Below, in pieces: positions 11,471-24,374 of a DNA stretch of 64,000 nucleotides. The number at the start of each line of letters is the position of its first letter. Position 1 is the first letter of the stretch. The stretch is from contig CAVPPB010000002.1 of NCBI GenBank assembly GCA_963707215.1, forward strand, positions 320,001 through 384,000, in the 5' to 3' direction. A program made the translations under genes and the position numbers. The notes under the pieces were generated by a model. The model ran no database searches and was not told the origin of the DNA. It saw nothing but the letters and a program-made list of their open reading frames with translations. The stretch comes from an uncultured Chloroflexia bacterium (GTDB lineage Bacteria; Chloroflexota; Limnocylindria; Limnocylindrales; CSP1-4).

Positions 11471-11575
11471 ATGATGGACAGGTCCCGACGCTGGCTTCCG
11501 ATCCGGACGGCCCTGACCCTGGTGGCACTCACGGCGATCGCCCTGTCCCTGCAGGCGGGGATGCGCTGGCACTGA
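11471..11575 (+). CDS. Small hydrophobic peptide (34 aa) ending AGMRWH
   Basis: RBS GGGAGG. MMDRSRRWLPIRTALTLVALTAIALSLQAGMRWH. Paralogous to the 22649-22747 peptide. Confidence 0.7.
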   Translation: MMDRSRRWLPIRTALTLVALTAIALSLQAGMRWH

Positions 11576-18944: not shown

Positions 18945-19826
18945 ATGTCGCCCCTCCAGGACCGGACCATCGCGACGGTCGGCACCGGGGTGATGGCCGA
19001 GGCCATCATCGCGGGGCTCCTGCGCGCCGGCCTCGTCGAGCCGCCGCAGGTGGTCGCCAGCCACGCACGACCCGAGCGGCGCGAGCACCTCGAGCGCGAG
19101 TACGGCATCCGTGCCGTCGGCACCAACGTCGAGGCCGTCGAGGGGGCCGACATCGTCCTCCTCGCCATCAAGCCCCAGATGCTCGTCCGGGTCGGCCGCG
19201 AGATCGGACCGCACCTCCGACGCGGCCAGCTCGTCCTGTCGGTGCTGGCCGGGGCCACGACGGCGGCCATGACCGCGGTCCTGGGTCACGACCAGGTCGT
19301 CCGGAGCATGCCCAACACGCCGGCCCGTCTGGGGCACGGCATGACCGTCTGGTACGCCACGCCGGCGACGACCGCTGAGCAGCGGGCCCAGGCCGCCGCG
19401 TTGCTGCGAGCCTTGGGCGCCGAGCTGGAGGTCGACGACGAGAAGTTCGTGGCGATGGCGACGGCGGTGTCGGGGACCGGCCCGACCTATGTCTTCCTCG
19501 TCATGGAAGCCCTCATCGACGCGGCGGTCCACCTCGGGTTCCCGCGCCACATCGCCCACGACCTGGTCATCGAGACGCTCGAGGGCAGCACGCTCTTCGC
19601 GAAGCAGAGCGGGATGCATCCGGCCGAGCTCCGGAACATGGTCACCTCGCCGGGCGGGACGAGCGCGGCCGCCCTGCACGAGTTGGAGTCCGGCCGCCTT
19701 CGCACGGTCCTCTCCGAGGCCGTCTGGGCCGCCTTCCACCGAACCGTCGAGCTGGGTGACCAGCTCGAGCGCTCGGCCCTTCCGTCGGACGACGAGGCGC
19801 GCGACCCGACGAACCGATCGCGATGA
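18945..19826 (+). CDS. proC: Pyrroline-5-carboxylate reductase
   Basis: GTGVMA, AIKPQ, RSMPNTP and VTSPGGTS motifs. Confidence 0.95.
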   Translation: MSPLQDRTIATVGTGVMAEAIIAGLLRAGLVEPPQVVASHARPERREHLEREYGIRAVGTNVEAVEGADIVLLAIKPQMLVRVGREIGPHLRRGQLVLSVLAGATTAAMTAVLGHDQVVRSMPNTPARLGHGMTVWYATPATTAEQRAQAAALLRALGAELEVDDEKFVAMATAVSGTGPTYVFLVMEALIDAAVHLGFPRHIAHDLVIETLEGSTLFAKQSGMHPAELRNMVTSPGGTSAAALHELESGRLRTVLSEAVWAAFHRTVELGDQLERSALPSDDEARDPTNRSR

Positions 19827-20902
19827 CGACCTCCGGCTCGAGCCCTGGGATCGACCTCCGGCGAGCCCCGCTGCAGGTCATCAGGAGCCTCGACCTGCGC
19901 TCTCCCGACCGGGATCTGTGGGCCGACGAGCGAGCCATCTGGGATCGCTTCGCGGCCTCGTGGGCAGGTCTCGACGACGCAGCCTGGCGGCTGGCCGGGG
20001 CGGCCCCGTCGGACGCCGGCGGGCCGGATTGGTCGCTCCTCGATCACGTCGCTCACACGGCGCACTGGCAGGAGGTCGCCATCGGCTACGTCGCCGAGGC
20101 CGAGCGGACCGGTCGGTGGCCATCCGACGAGGACTTCGACGGCGGCGATTTCGACCGCTACAACGAGCGGATGCGGACGCCCTGGGAGGGCCTGTCCCCG
20201 GGCGAGGTCCGGACGCGGCTGATCGCCGGGCACGATCGCCTCCTCGAGGCGGTGCGGCGGCTCGACCCGACGGTGGTCCGCTCCGACGAGGCCTGGGGCT
20301 GGATCTTCATGACCCTCCACGGTCACCAGCTCGACCATCTCGGCATCATCGAGCCGTGGGCGGAGCGCCTCCGCGAGCGACAGGCTGGCCACGACCCCTT
20401 CGTGGCCGACCCGCGGCCCGGCCCCGGCGAGGACCCGCTGGCCGGGTTCCTGGCGGCCGAGGCCTCGGCGATGGCCCTATGGCAGGACCTGCTCGCTGAT
20501 ATCCCGACCGAGCGCTGGACCGAGTCGCCGGTCACGCCGGGCTGGACGCTCCGGGATCACGTCGCCCACCTGGCCGACTGGTTCGCCGAGGGTGCGGCGG
20601 CCATCGAGGACCATCTCCGTGGGAGCCCCTGGCGCGACGGACCCGAGGAGGGCTTCGACGCCTGGAACGAGCGGGCGCTCGAGCGGCACCGGGATGAGAC
20701 GCCGACGGCCGTCCTCGAGCGGTTCTCCGCCTCGCGCCAACGCCTGCTGGAGCTGGTCGCCGCACTACCGACGGAGACCCTGCTGAGCGAGGATGGCTGG
20801 TCCTGGTCCTACGAGTGCCTGCACGGTCATGTCCGATCCCACCTCGCCATGATCGGCCCGTGGTGTGCGCGCATCGACTGGCCACCGGCCGATCCGGCAT
20901 GA
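19823..20902 (+). CDS. Tandem DinB/MDMPI-like four-helix-bundle protein
   Basis: Two copies of W(S/T)LxDHVAH...H..xH. Confidence 0.75.
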   Translation: MTTSGSSPGIDLRRAPLQVIRSLDLRSPDRDLWADERAIWDRFAASWAGLDDAAWRLAGAAPSDAGGPDWSLLDHVAHTAHWQEVAIGYVAEAERTGRWPSDEDFDGGDFDRYNERMRTPWEGLSPGEVRTRLIAGHDRLLEAVRRLDPTVVRSDEAWGWIFMTLHGHQLDHLGIIEPWAERLRERQAGHDPFVADPRPGPGEDPLAGFLAAEASAMALWQDLLADIPTERWTESPVTPGWTLRDHVAHLADWFAEGAAAIEDHLRGSPWRDGPEEGFDAWNERALERHRDETPTAVLERFSASRQRLLELVAALPTETLLSEDGWSWSYECLHGHVRSHLAMIGPWCARIDWPPADPA

Positions 20903-21599: not shown

Positions 21600-22538
21600 A
21601 TGCGATCGGCGTTGCTGTCGCTCTCGCGGCGGCGCTCCCTCGGGCGCCTGGCGACGCGGCTGCCGGTGACCCGCGAGATGGTCCGACGTTTCGTGTCGGG
21701 CGAGCGCCTCGAGGAGGCGCTCCCGGCGCTCGAGCGGATCGCCGCCGGTGGCCTCGCCACGACGGTCGACGTGCTCGGTGAATCCGTCGACTCGGCCGAG
21801 GCGGCCGATGCCGCGGCGGACCGGTACATCGTCCTGCTCGAGGCGATCGCCGAGCGCGGGATCGACCCGAACGTGTCGCTGAAGCTGACCCAGATGGGCC
21901 TCGACGTGGACCTGACCGTCTGTCGGGCCAACGTCGAACGGATCTTCCGCCGGGCCGCCGAGCTCGGGGCCTTCGTCCGGATCGACATGGAGGATCACAC
22001 CAGGACCGACGCCACGCTGGCTCTGTGGCGCGATCTGAGGGCGGTAAACCCCGCCAGCGGCGTCGTCGTCCAGTCGGCCCTTCGACGGAGCGCCGACGAT
22101 GTCGACCGGCTCATCGGCGAGGGGGCCCGCGTCCGGCTCTGCAAGGGGGCCTACAAGGAGCCGGCCGCCGTGGCGTTCCAGGAGAAGGCCGAGGTGGACC
22201 GAGCGTACGTCGACCTTATGGACCGCCTCCTCGTCGAGGGGACCTACCCCGCCGTCGCCACCCATGACCCGCGGATCATCCGGCGGGCCATCGCCCTCGC
22301 CGGGCGGGAGGGCATCGGCCCGGAGCGGTTCGAGTTCCAGATGCTCTACGGCGTCCGCCGCGACCTCCAGGAGCGCCTGGTGGCCGACGGCTGGACCGTC
22401 CGCGTGTACGTGCCGTTCGGCCGCGAGTGGTACCCGTACTTCATGCGCCGCCTGGCCGAGCGCCCGGCCAACGTGGCCTTCCTGCTGCGGAGCGTCCTCC
22501 GCGAGGGTCGCGGCGGAGAGGTGGGTCGGCCTGACTGA
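21600..22538 (+). CDS. Proline dehydrogenase (monofunctional)
   Basis: SLKLTQMG, RIDME, RLCKGAY, EFQMLYG and YFMRRLAERP motifs. Confidence 0.95.
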   Translation: MRSALLSLSRRRSLGRLATRLPVTREMVRRFVSGERLEEALPALERIAAGGLATTVDVLGESVDSAEAADAAADRYIVLLEAIAERGIDPNVSLKLTQMGLDVDLTVCRANVERIFRRAAELGAFVRIDMEDHTRTDATLALWRDLRAVNPASGVVVQSALRRSADDVDRLIGEGARVRLCKGAYKEPAAVAFQEKAEVDRAYVDLMDRLLVEGTYPAVATHDPRIIRRAIALAGREGIGPERFEFQMLYGVRRDLQERLVADGWTVRVYVPFGREWYPYFMRRLAERPANVAFLLRSVLREGRGGEVGRPD

Positions 22539-22648
22539 GCCGACCCATGGCGGTCCGGTCCGGCGGGCAGACGAACGCCGCCGGGGAGGAGGGCCCCAGC
22601 GGCGTTCCGGGTCGGCGAGTGGCGGCCGTCAGGCGGCCACCGGGTGCG

Positions 22649-22747
22649 CTAGAACCAGCGCCGGCCGGCCTCGAGCGCGAGCGCCATCGACGCCAGCGCC
22701 GAGAGGACCAGGACCACCCGGACGGTCTCGAGCTTGATCCGCTTCAT
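22649..22747 (-). CDS. Small hydrophobic peptide (32 aa) ending AGRRWF (absent from the ORF track)
   Basis: RBS GAAGGGAG. MKRIKLETVRVVLVLSALASMALALEAGRRWF. Directly downstream of DUF5317. Confidence 0.75.
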   Translation of the reverse strand: MKRIKLETVRVVLVLSALASMALALEAGRRWF

Positions 22748-22905
22748 CGTCGCTCCCTTCGGCGCCTCCGTGAGTGGGCACGGTCGGAGGCGCTAGGGGG
22801 ACAACGTACGAGGCGATACGGCATCTGCCCATGGCCCGGAGGTACCGGTACCCCCCAGGACGCAGGTCCGGTGCAGCCGCGCACCGTGACCCGCGGATGG
22901 TCCTG

Positions 22906-23469
22906 TCAGGCGGCCCCGGGGCCGGCCGTGTCGGCTGATGGCTGCCCGCTGGTCGGCTGCCGCATCCCGGCCACGATGGCGACGGCGATGCCGACCCCGA
23001 TGAGCACGTCGCCGACCGAGAACACGTTGGCCAGCGGCAGCCATGACGGCATCGCGAACACGTCGGTGAGGAACCAGAGGGCCGGATCCGCGACGACGAT
23101 GCTGTTGGCGGCGTCCTCGGCCGGTCTGCCGAGCGCCGCCAGGGCGTCCGGGTCGGCCGGCATCGCCCCGCCGTTGGCCAGGATCGCGGCCAGGTTGAGC
23201 CCCGCGCCGACAGCGACGAGGGCAAGCCCGGGGATGCGGACGTTGACCAGCACGACGACGAGAACGAGCGCTGTCGAGCCGACGTAGAGGATCGACACCA
23301 GGTCTTCGACGAGCGACGCGCCGAGATCGCTGAACAGGACCACCTGACCGCCCAGCCCGAGGAGGGCGAGCGGCAACCAGCGGATCCGAAGATCGGCCAA
23401 CCGGCCCAGGCGGCCGCCGGCGAGGCGGCCGGCGATCAGGCCCGCGAGGACCGCGTAGAGGATGAACAC
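22906..23469 (-). CDS. DUF5317 family membrane protein
   Basis: GGRL..L..L, G..LN..AI.ANGGAMP and L.FLTDVF...NVFSVGDVLI motifs. Confidence 0.85.
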   Translation of the reverse strand: MFILYAVLAGLIAGRLAGGRLGRLADLRIRWLPLALLGLGGQVVLFSDLGASLVEDLVSILYVGSTALVLVVVLVNVRIPGLALVAVGAGLNLAAILANGGAMPADPDALAALGRPAEDAANSIVVADPALWFLTDVFAMPSWLPLANVFSVGDVLIGVGIAVAIVAGMRQPTSGQPSADTAGPGAA

Positions 23470-23546
23470 GGCCGCAGTGTCGCACGGGGCTGCTCCCGTG
23501 GCGCCGGTGGCGCATCATCGACCCGACGCCCAGCCAGGAGGATCCA

Positions 23547-24374
23547 GTGAGCGAGCCGCAAGCGACCATCCACCCATTCGTCGCGGGCCGGAGCCGCATC
23601 CGCCGGCGGGTCCTGGCCGGCGAGACGACCGTCGGAGCCTTCGTCAACCTGGCCGCGCCGATGAGCGCCGAACTGCTGGCCCGGGCGGGCTTCGACTGGC
23701 TGATCGTCGATCTGGAGCACGGCGCCGGGACCGAGGCCGACCTGCTGGGCCAGCTCTACGCGATCGAGTCGACCGGCGACCTGGGCGGGCGTATCACCGC
23801 GGCCCTGGTCCGACCCCAGGAAGGGACCCGCCTGGGCATCGGCCGCGCCCTCGATCTCGGAGCGGAGGGGATCATGGTCCCCCGGCTCGAGACCGTCGAC
23901 GAGGTCCGCCGGGTCGTCTCCTGGCTGCGCTGGCCGCCGGCCGGGGTCCGAGGGCTGGCCCTGGGCACCCGCGGCGCCGAGCAGGGTGAGGTCGCCCACG
24001 GCGGGGTCCGCGACCTGAACGACCGGATCCTCGGTGTCGTCCAGGTGGAGAGCGGCGCCGCCGTCGAGGCGTCCGCCGAGATCGCGGCGATCGACGGGGT
24101 CGACGTCCTCTTCGTGGGACCGACCGACCTGTCCCACGCCCTCGGGGTCCCGGGTCGTTTCGACGACCCGGTCTTCGGCGAGGCGCTGCGGACCGTCGTG
24201 GCCGCCTGCCGGGCCAACGGCAAGGCGCCGGGCATCCTCCTCCGCCGGCTCGGCGATCTCGATCGTTACCTCGCCCTGGGGTTCACCTTCGTGGGGCTCG
24301 GCTCGGACGGCGCCTTCGTCAGCGACGGCGCGGCGACGGCCGTGGCGGCCGCCCGGGAACGCCTGGGCGGCTGA
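23547..24374 (+). CDS. HpcH/HpaI aldolase family protein
   Basis: GFDWLIVDLEHG, ALDLGAEGIMVP and FVGPTDLS motifs. Confidence 0.9.
   Translation: MSEPQATIHPFVAGRSRIRRRVLAGETTVGAFVNLAAPMSAELLARAGFDWLIVDLEHGAGTEADLLGQLYAIESTGDLGGRITAALVRPQEGTRLGIGRALDLGAEGIMVPRLETVDEVRRVVSWLRWPPAGVRGLALGTRGAEQGEVAHGGVRDLNDRILGVVQVESGAAVEASAEIAAIDGVDVLFVGPTDLSHALGVPGRFDDPVFGEALRTVVAACRANGKAPGILLRRLGDLDRYLALGFTFVGLGSDGAFVSDGAATAVAAARERLGG

Follow-up and report, generated by a model that had tools for sequence, protein, structure and literature searches.

A conserved, unannotated micropeptide gene linked to DUF5317 in an uncultured Chloroflexia bacterium, and its possible role as a partner of that membrane protein

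The window (the whole analysed stretch of 64,000 nucleotides) carries on its minus strand a gene for a DUF5317 protein and, 158 nt 3′ of it on the same strand, a very small gene. These two genes, the signals around them and a paralogous small gene elsewhere in the window are located as follows.

22906..23469, minus strand: DUF5317 gene, 187 aa, GTG start (Pfam PF17248; five-helix model).
22870..22885, minus strand: GC-rich, terminator-like hairpin without a U tail, right after the DUF5317 stop codon (sequence and fold; GGTGC..GCAC hairpins aligned in relatives).
22802..22852, minus strand: promoter- or operator-like DNA block of A-only loci, composed of GGTACCGGTACCTCCGGGCCATGGGC, 16 nt and CGTACGTTG (alignment of 25 spacers).
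22762..22793, minus strand: stem-loop GCGCCTCC..GGAGGCGC in a putative 5′ leader, just upstream of the ribosome-binding site.
22753..22759, minus strand: ribosome-binding site AAGGGAG, 5 nt before the peptide ATG (sequence).
22649..22747, minus strand: unannotated micropeptide gene of type A (..LEAGRRWF), 32 aa and a stop codon (open reading frame, profile match, alignment of 39 copies, codon-position test).
22619..22648, minus strand: GC-rich hairpin, probable 3′ end of the unit, abutting the peptide stop codon (stem-loops with differing stems aligned in five relatives; two metatranscriptome contigs terminating at 22621 and 22613).
11471..11575, plus strand: paralogous micropeptide gene, 34 aa (..LSLQAGMRWH), an orphan without a nearby DUF5317 gene (profile matches 2e-4 and 4.8e-5).

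A 32-aa reading frame with a strong ribosome-binding site beside the DUF5317 gene had already been pointed out in the earlier note, and both genes are indeed in place, with AAGGGAG at the distance given above. The product, MKRIKLETVRVVLVLSALASMALALEAGRRWF, consists of a basic N-terminus, a single hydrophobic helix and a short tail; with fewer than 50 residues, one hydrophobic helix and a gene signature that includes a ribosome-binding site it resembles, judged by sequence features, a small membrane protein. In the alignment of 39 copies, A27 and W31 are invariant and R10, L23, G28 and R30 nearly so, the spacing from R10 to W31 is fixed without a single indel, small residues are conserved inside the helix (L-A-S-x-A-L), and in most copies the Trp is trailed by 0-3 residues. 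Most copies are also preceded by comparable purine-rich sites. Pairwise differences at codon positions 1/2/3 amount to 0.26/0.20/0.45 for type A (22 codons, 52 distinct DNAs) and 0.31/0.17/0.46 for type B (22 codons, 47 distinct DNAs), the third positions being about twice as variable as the first and second, and purifying selection acts on the peptide codons. When the 3.26-Mb genome was translated in all six frames, a profile built on the copies of 24 relatives matched it in only three places with E < 0.01, namely the reading frame at 22649-22747 (6e-17), one after the second DUF5317 gene, and the orphan in the window, which has GGGAGG ahead of its ATG. No NCBIfam family matched the peptide or the DUF5317 protein. 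On sequence grounds, the 32-codon reading frame is a real gene encoding a predicted tiny membrane peptide, an example of a conserved protein-coding gene missed by standard annotation.

The larger gene encodes a protein matching PF17248 over residues 27-166 (E 1.2e-26, 94 bits against a cut-off of 25), and its AlphaFold2 model (pLDDT 88, pTM 0.82) has five membrane helices. The polar motifs N..ANGG.MP and D..S.GD, to which the earlier note had drawn attention, are present as N92..N99-G-G-x-M-P104, T135-D136 and S151-x-G153-D154, and they are invariant in 78 close relatives as well as in 56 relatives at 34-59% identity. Twelve residues are invariant, and half of these are polar (three Asn, two Asp and one Ser); in the 56 diverse proteins N76, N92, N99, G101, P104, D136, P141, S151, G153 and D154 are invariant, and the invariant columns hold only N, D, S, G and P, with no His or Cys. 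K/R residues abound in loops 17-31 and 76-81, while the conserved acidic loop of the model (residues 99-151) holds 4.4 D/E against 0.8 K/R, and from these loop charges D136 and D154 would lie at the outer face of the membrane. In the structural comparison that had been suggested, Foldseek returned no row from the PDB at E ≤ 0.001. A wide structural search had as its best row a designed helical barrel (Z 6.6), with no family standing out, a sequence-profile search of the PDB gave nothing at E ≤ 10, an ESM Atlas search for named clusters besides DUF5317 gave no usable match, and tblastn against plasmids gave none. DUF5317 has no profile match, LspA included, and no clear fold match. The family is large (4,889 clusters at 50% identity, E ≤ 0.001) and has no assigned function or structural relative; the pairing would offer its first concrete partner. 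Literature searches on the names DUF5317 and PF17248 found no paper, and no description of the pair.

The association of the two genes extends well beyond the window. Among 30 loci picked by DUF5317 alone, 24 hold a peptide match at E ≤ 1 (21 strong ones, downstream and on the same strand, and 3 weaker ones upstream) and 6 hold none, with at least L021, L028 and L042 overlapping with the training of the profile. In a second set of 80 DUF5317-centred loci, with at least L059, L072 and L082 overlapping in the same way, a peptide was found at domain E ≤ 0.01 in 49 (45 downstream of the query DUF5317, 3 downstream of a second copy and 1 on the opposite strand) and in 31 there was none. Nearly all matches are situated 115-500 nt downstream of DUF5317 on the same strand. 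The earlier note had staked its proposal on an enrichment of AG-x-[RK]-W peptides beside DUF5317 genes, and it stands on this point because the enrichment is heavy (24/30 and 49/80 loci against 3 matches in 3.26 Mb). At the level of whole genomes, for which the two tables were compared by eye, 40 of the 201 genomes of the class sample are peptide-positive, all 40 being DUF5317-positive as well, and the peptide is absent from all 37 genomes that lack DUF5317. The peptide type follows the DUF5317 tree, needing 21 label changes where shuffles average 56.6, on a quick tree whose kin are not independent. The genetic linkage of DUF5317 and the peptide is real, and it lends strong support to the earlier view that DUF5317 and a short Trp-ended peptide probably form a functional pair.

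DUF5317 itself does not depend on the peptide, since the 6 and 31 stand-alone loci of the two sets have none nearby. A tail-motif scan of these 31 loci found no different mini-ORF, and the scanning of 22 of them for Trp-ended hydrophobic reading frames yielded none except one upstream frame of the AAPFRW type (L118). De novo clustering of small reading frames in 23 DUF5317 loci of family f3 returned only fragments of neighbouring HD-GYP and MFS genes; flanks of 1.5 kb did not extend to the operon start. The peptide in turn lies far from any DUF5317 in 6 of 20 peptide-centred relative loci (L007, L009, L012-L014, L020), as does the orphan of the window, and tandem copies are present in some genomes. 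DUF5317 occurs in 164 of the 201 genomes of the class and, within the control set, in those of Thermus and Thermotoga; its wider range than that of the peptide family counts against a dedicated pairing. Across pairs, the charge at peptide position 29 co-varies with that at DUF5317 position 116 (19/14/5/51), but kinship confounds this pattern, and the pair in the window (R115, P116) departs from it. Prediction of the complex of DUF5317 and peptide from two alignments, run without controls, reached 0.31 and 0.24, the mark being 0.32, and has no bearing either way on binding.

Two types of peptide can be distinguished, A (LEAGRRW, the window copy) and B (LGAGxRW), and these track DUF5317 clades. 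Of 20 loci with B or a B+A tandem, 18 have a c-di-GMP-I riboswitch in the interval from DUF5317 to the peptide, compared to 3 of 20 A-only loci. The two other DUF5317 genes of the genome under study belong to c-di-GMP riboswitch operons. In one, the second copy, DUF5317 is followed by such a riboswitch, peptide B and a membrane protein of 856 aa, with a multi-helix N-terminus and then GAF, GGDEF and EAL domains. The other consists of a c-di-GMP-II riboswitch, a tiny reading frame, an HD-GYP gene and a DUF5317-MFS fusion. For the window pair, there was no Rfam match at E ≤ 1 in positions 22000-24000, no riboswitch at gathering score in the whole window, and neither a GGDEF nor an HD-GYP gene within about 60 kb; the neighbouring genes encode an HpcH-type aldolase, a proline dehydrogenase, a DinB-like protein and a membrane protein with a sub-threshold Cation_efflux match. 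The window pair is tied to c-di-GMP by family, not by locus. Through the pairing, both partners find a place in the c-di-GMP network, many riboswitches of which have no assigned output.

In the spacer of the A-only loci, the block at 22802-22852 displays invariant GTAC, G and AT columns (25 spacers), and a genome-wide search with its PWM found no other clear site. The 158-nt spacer was also considered as RNA, as the whole spacer folds better than its shuffles (z-score -3.4), but this reading was rejected on a positive covariation term in five close relatives and on the consensus fold of the 25 spacers, which has 0 pairs. The block is read as DNA because covariation and consensus pairing fail to back RNA. 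The leader stem at 22762-22793 is kept in 4 of the 5 closest relatives, with little covariation, and a simple scan for sigma-70 promoters and for terminators between 22450 and 23650 returned 0 and 0. In metatranscriptomes, two runs from two studies gave one 163-nt contig each, covering 22621-22783 and 22613-22769. Both RNA contigs comprise the peptide reading frame, flanked on either side by about 30 nt, with practically no DUF5317 sequence, while DNA contigs extend further, and this is a weak hint of a separate peptide transcript. Over the DUF5317 part there was no RNA contig except one 32-nt piece, which does not indicate a silent gene. The sequencing runs contain just 0.05-0.16 of the words sampled from the stretch, too little for a claim on habitat or abundance.

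In regard to what the peptide does, the explanation we tentatively prefer, with a probability of about 0.45, is that it is a regulated single-pass membrane partner of DUF5317, acting on this protein at the outer face of the membrane. Its topology, its direct contact with DUF5317 and its effect are inferred as follows. The basic N-terminus up to R10, with 2.7 K/R in 9 residues, would be cytoplasmic, the helix of fixed length would span the membrane, and the invariant A-G-x-[RK]-W tail would be placed at the outer interface. There the tail could meet the acidic outward loop and the start of helix 5 of DUF5317 (N99-G-G-x-M-P, T-D136 and S-x-G-D154). The peptide would be the regulated component, with expression signals separate from those of DUF5317: a c-di-GMP-I riboswitch in type B and B+A loci, and the promoter-like block, the leader hairpin and the terminator-like hairpin in the window locus. 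Once made, it would bind DUF5317 and alter the activity of that protein, and the pair could then represent an output arm of the lineage's c-di-GMP network. The conserved helix of fixed length would fit a membrane-resident partner at least as well as a processing substrate, and so, likewise, would the wider spread of DUF5317 than of the peptide (164 versus 40 of 201 genomes). The enzyme- or transporter-like invariant residues of DUF5317 nevertheless leave room for the peptide as its substrate. In any case, the pair is small enough for direct experimental testing.

Such a substrate role is the core of the processing pair that the earlier note had in mind. In a more general form of it, DUF5317 would be a new outward-facing membrane aspartyl peptidase that cuts the peptide at or near Ala-Gly, the outcome being either a 3-6-residue x-R-W-x signal set free outside the cell or destruction of the peptide. 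We regard it as somewhat unlikely. The idea is kept alive by Ala-Gly (A27 invariant, G28 nearly so) standing right before the R-W tail and by the two invariant outward aspartates, D136 and D154, which are joined at the predicted outer face by three invariant Asn and one Ser. The peptide as a whole resembles a signal peptide, with its basic start, hydrophobic core, small residues and short tail, usually with just 0-3 residues beyond the Trp; A-G resembles lipobox positions -2 and -1, RRNPP and ComS signals are likewise the C-terminal residues of short precursors, and fusions of DUF5317 with an MFS exporter are found among its other copies. LspA does appear in the structure search (Z 5.1, rmsd 4.2, 97 residues, rank 15), but this score is within the noise of helical bundles, in a list headed by the designed barrel at Z 6.6, and there is no peptidase homology in Pfam (DUF5317 only), in the PDB profile search (nothing at E ≤ 10), in Foldseek (nothing at E ≤ 0.001) or in hhalign against the LspA of relatives (probability 2.3%). 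Moreover, a fixed helix length with conserved positions is unusual in a plain signal-peptide core, no part of the peptide is better conserved in the class than the one that would be released, in contrast to pheromones that are specific to a strain, many DUF5317 genes lack a peptide of this kind, and the window has no linked receptor gene. The most specific form of the idea, with DUF5317 as founder of outward-facing membrane aspartyl peptidases that free a 3-6-residue x-Arg-Trp extracellular signal at the invariant Ala-Gly, is unlikely, more so than processing in general. If true, it would be a previously unknown bridge from c-di-GMP to cell-to-cell signalling, as the level of the second messenger would gate the peptide signal directly, the precursor being often transcribed behind a c-di-GMP riboswitch.

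Alternatively, the peptide could target the membrane sensor domain of c-di-GMP enzymes, either the multi-pass N-terminus of a GGDEF-EAL protein or an HD-GYP protein, with DUF5317 merely a co-regulated neighbour. Riboswitch control, which sets the peptides within a c-di-GMP circuit, the 856-aa multi-helix GAF-GGDEF-EAL protein behind peptide B and the tiny reading frame ahead of an HD-GYP gene are in line with this, yet the constant neighbour of the peptide is DUF5317 and no enzyme, its type tracks the DUF5317 clade, and the window pair has no GGDEF or HD-GYP gene in about 60 kb, which makes such a target quite improbable. Least of all do we expect a small toxin, similar to type I toxins or bacteriocins, that damages membranes or arrests growth, with DUF5317 as the immunity protein, a role for which there is hardly a chance. 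A short, hydrophobic, separately regulated peptide adjoining a membrane protein and tandemly repeated in some genomes would suit it, but the pair has been conserved in several families of one class, where it follows the DUF5317 tree, the loci read bear no mobile-element mark, DUF5317 has invariant enzyme-like residues and is also found fused to a transporter, and each member of the pair is met on its own, DUF5317 commonly so and the peptide in some loci with no DUF5317 nearby.

Among known systems, the earlier note had likened the pair to AgrB/AgrD of staphylococci, and the likeness is that of a short peptide gene adjoining a gene for a multi-pass membrane protein. The gene order is reversed here, with the peptide after the membrane protein, and the thiolactone Cys and the AgrC/AgrA genes are absent. 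Membership in this system was rejected: Pfam at E ≤ 0.01 gives DUF5317 only and no AgrB domain, the catalytic His/Cys of AgrB are missing from the invariant columns of DUF5317, the 39 peptides have no Cys column and a basic tail in place of the acidic one of AgrD, and the flanking genes include no histidine kinase or response regulator. LspA (PF01252, MEROPS A8, PDB 6RYP) is likewise a small multi-pass protein with two invariant aspartates near the outer face, the position of those of DUF5317 being predicted, and the candidate substrate of DUF5317 would be signal-peptide-like with small A-G at the helix end; it differs in having no Cys after A-G. No Pfam match relates DUF5317 to PF01252, the hhalign alignment spans just helix 1 and loop 1, and the genome has its own canonical LspA (G000:C1:32753-33160).

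Small single-pass regulators of larger membrane proteins are represented by MgrB-PhoQ, AcrZ-AcrB, KdpF-KdpABC and MgtS. The peptide is like them in its roughly 30 residues, one helix, lack of annotation, adjoining or co-regulated membrane partner and separate regulation. It has no sequence relation to them and is set apart by the A-G-x-[RK]-W tail and the helix length fixed class-wide, by a partner of unassigned function, and by expression often set by a c-di-GMP riboswitch. Finally, in comparison with c-di-GMP-I (GEMM-I) units (Rfam RF01051, RF03167), the window copy has a conserved promoter-like block in place of the riboswitch, whereas a gene of this peptide family comes first after the riboswitch in sister loci and at the second DUF5317 gene of the genome.

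Within the 32-codon ORF downstream of the DUF5317 gene, several lines of evidence point to a genuine gene. The ORF lies on the same strand, 158 nt downstream, with the site AAGGGAG 5 nt 5′ of its ATG, and its product has no family in Pfam or NCBIfam. According to Pfam, the pair is flanked by an HpcH-type aldolase (divergent) and a proline dehydrogenase (convergent). The elements of the locus, in window positions, are as follows:

22906-23469, minus strand: DUF5317 gene, 187 aa (Pfam PF17248, E 1.2e-26)
22870-22885, minus strand: terminator-like hairpin of DUF5317 (fold/sequence)
22827-22852 and 22802-22810, minus strand: conserved promoter-like DNA block (alignment A5, 25 related spacers)
22762-22793, minus strand: leader hairpin, 5′ of the ribosome-binding site (RBS) of the micropeptide
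22649-22747, minus strand: micropeptide ORF, 32 codons, MKRIKLETVRVVLVLSALASMALALEAGRRWF
22619-22648, minus strand: terminator-like hairpin after the micropeptide ORF

The unit may be read from its sequence as a DUF5317 terminator-like hairpin, a putative promoter/operator of the peptide, a leader hairpin with RBS, the ORF, and a second terminator-like hairpin.

By tblastn, the micropeptide was found in 22 of 61 related genomes, including 21/36 of the same family and 0/24 of a family of about 1.1-Mb genomes. A profile built from 24 of these matches, cut out of stored loci, gave three matches at E < 0.01 when run against all six reading frames of the complete 3.26-Mb host genome: the ORF at 22649-22747, an ORF after the second DUF5317 gene, and a 34-aa orphan at 11471-11575; upstream of the third DUF5317 locus there is a fourth, weak match (E 0.14). 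The orphan (plus strand, tail ..LSLQAGMRWH, GGGAGG before its ATG) is preceded by the end of a YHS/TRASH-like ORF, with no DUF5317 nearby. Among 39 aligned peptides, A27 and W31 are invariant, R10, L23, G28 and R30 are near-invariant, and no indel occurs between R10 and W31; a purine-rich site precedes the start codon in most copies. Two forms can be distinguished, type A, to which the peptide of the window belongs, with the tail ..L-E-A-G-[RKQ]-R-W, and type B, which starts M-K-A-N-L-A-R-F and ends ..L-G-A-G-x-R-W. Differences at codon positions 1/2/3 amount to 0.26/0.20/0.45 in type A (52 distinct DNAs) and 0.31/0.17/0.46 in type B (47 distinct DNAs), so that in both types third positions vary roughly twice as much as the other two. 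Judging from these alignments, the ORF codes for a protein and is kept by purifying selection, and the small ORF that the earlier note had seen next to DUF5317 is upheld by profile, alignment and codon-position pattern alike.

In regard to linkage, the first set of loci comprised the 30 best Pfam DUF5317 matches in a 201-genome sample of the class, chosen by DUF5317 alone; 24 held a peptide profile match at E <= 1 and six held none. Strong matches, on the same strand and downstream of DUF5317, made up 21 of the 24, and the other three were weaker, upstream, and ended in AAPFRW. The second set consisted of 80 public loci retrieved by means of an alignment of DUF5317, where a match at domain E <= 0.01 was present in 49 and none in 31; 45 matches lay downstream of the DUF5317 that brought the locus in, three downstream of another DUF5317 gene in the locus, and one on the other strand. 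These counts, in which a few loci overlap the profile training set (at least L021, L028 and L042 in the first set and L059, L072 and L082 in the second), bear out the proposed pairing of DUF5317 with a short peptide, and the two together are the constant core of the module. At the genome level, DUF5317 occurs in 164/201 and the peptide in 40/201 (tallies that include eight unpublished genomes, all loci read being from the others), and all 40 peptide-positive genomes of this sample were also DUF5317-positive when the tables were compared by eye.

A tail-motif scan of all 31 profile-negative loci found no peptide except one upstream AAPFRW-type ORF, and, with the same single exception, no hydrophobic ORF ending in Trp turned up in the 22 of these loci that were scanned for such ORFs. 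In one peptide-less locus, L061, DUF5317 has as its next neighbour a convergent ORF of 653 aa, which starts directly at the stop of DUF5317 and, by eye, looks like a prolyl-oligopeptidase-type hydrolase. A DinB-like gene is found a few kb or less from a stand-alone DUF5317 gene both in the window (19823-20902, plus strand) and in at least one locus devoid of the peptide (L061, 2187-2981). All 23 loci read from family f3 were of the HD-GYP, DUF5317(-MFS) type. A separate DUF5317 clade (L027, L032, L049, L118) has a different mini-ORF, upstream and not downstream, with the tail ..AAPFRW. Loci L088, L111, L119, L128 and L135 hold two stand-alone DUF5317 genes in tandem, belonging to different tree clades, with a type B peptide after one.

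Peptide labels (A, B, both, none) required 21 changes on the DUF5317 tree against a shuffle mean of 56.6, in a quick maximum-likelihood tree of 114 proteins (three identical rows dropped) whose kin are not independent; the DUF5317 of the window falls in an A clade. A c-di-GMP-I aptamer (Rfam RF01051 or its GGC variant RF03167) lies between DUF5317 and the peptide in 18/20 loci with B or B+A, but in only 3/20 A-only loci; an earlier sample gave nine matches in 15 loci. In the window, Rfam detected no c-di-GMP riboswitch, either at gathering score over its whole length or at E <= 1 in 22000-24000. Where B-type loci have the riboswitch, 25 A-only spacers share the block GGTACC-GATGGCC-TATGGC, 17 nt, CGTA[GC]GTTG, with no consensus RNA structure among these spacers and no second clear copy elsewhere in the host genome; its CGTA may resemble an ECF-type -10 element. 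One 163-nt metatranscriptome contig from each of two runs in two studies (22621-22783 and 22613-22769; 95-99% identity) covers the peptide gene and about 30 nt per side, while DNA contigs run on; the two RNA contigs hint weakly that a separate, short transcript exists in close relatives, although DNA carried over into the libraries may also account for them. At DUF5317 positions 53 and 115, numbered as in the protein encoded in the window, B-linked proteins mostly have R and R/K, respectively, and A-linked ones hydrophobic residues, and at 116 A-linked proteins often have D/E; the three positions, all in predicted outer loops, offer a lead as candidate contact sites, confounded by kinship.

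The host genome carries three DUF5317 genes, and the other two lie on contig C2 near c-di-GMP elements:

C2:432280-432699: DUF5317 copy 2, MMPL transporter gene upstream
C2:432927-433010, plus strand: c-di-GMP-I riboswitch between DUF5317 copy 2 and peptide B (L021, L053)
C2:20184-20267, minus strand: c-di-GMP-II riboswitch (L139, L054; 59.6 bits, cut-off 53.5)

Peptide B is followed by a protein of 856 aa, which combines a multi-helix N-terminus with GAF, GGDEF and EAL domains. The third copy is a fusion with an MFS transporter, 3′ of an HD-GYP gene, and the C2:20184-20267 riboswitch heads this operon of a tiny ORF, the HD-GYP gene and the fusion. A second c-di-GMP-I riboswitch (C2:474224-474312, minus strand; L055) stands before a small ORF of another kind, which encodes a single hydrophobic segment. 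The window holds no GGDEF or HD-GYP gene, the nearest being about 62 and 91 kb off. The c-di-GMP wiring of the pair is frequent, yet absent at the locus of the window.

The DUF5317 family comprises 4,889 clusters at 50% identity (E <= 0.001). An AlphaFold2 model with 78 relatives (pLDDT 88, pTM 0.82) comprises five long helices together with a loop, 99-151, that is partly structured and acidic; loops 17-31 and 76-81 are K/R-rich. By the positive-inside rule, 17-31 and 76-81 would be inside and 99-151 outside, with the N-terminus out and the C-terminus in. Among 56 members of 34-59% identity, N76, G88, N92, N99, G101, P104, D136, P141, S151, G153, D154 and G160 are invariant.

The reading we favour, at a rough probability of 0.45, is that the peptide is a regulated single-pass partner that would bind DUF5317 and alter its activity. 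Since the N-terminal part of the peptide is more basic than the tail (2.7 K/R in nine residues vs 1.6 in six) and the helix length is fixed, the A-G-x-R-W tail is placed at the outer interface, where it would face the acidic conserved loop of DUF5317. The main competing explanation, in which DUF5317 would be a new aspartyl peptidase cutting the peptide at Ala-Gly, accords with the invariance of the aspartates, with the resemblance of the peptide to a signal peptide and with the DUF5317 fusions to an exporter. However, the peptide helix is conserved and of fixed length, the supposed mature part is invariant class-wide, many DUF5317 genes have no peptide, and no relation of DUF5317 to a peptidase was found by sequence; we consider such cleavage less likely than the partner reading. 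That the peptide acts on c-di-GMP enzymes, through their sensor domains, appears more doubtful still, and a toxin-immunity pair highly improbable.

A full-text literature search for "DUF5317" and "PF17248" found no paper, and the DUF5317-micropeptide module is undescribed in print and without known relative. Foldseek with the DUF5317 model returned no solved structure at E <= 0.001, and a profile search of PDB sequences gave no match. In a wide structure search the top hit was a designed barrel (Z 6.6), with LspA (6ryp_A) below it at Z 5.1, rank 15; a sequence relation to LspA fails, since DUF5317 reached a probability of 2.3% when compared by hhalign with aligned LspA proteins of the relatives. 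The earlier note had interpreted the locus as an AgrB/AgrD-like arrangement, with DUF5317 maturing a short Trp-containing signal peptide; the linkage counts show the pair to be real, but its membership in AgrB/AgrD fails on all features tested. The nearest functional analogy is offered by small membrane-protein regulators; in regulation, the c-di-GMP-I riboswitch unit of the sister loci comes closest.
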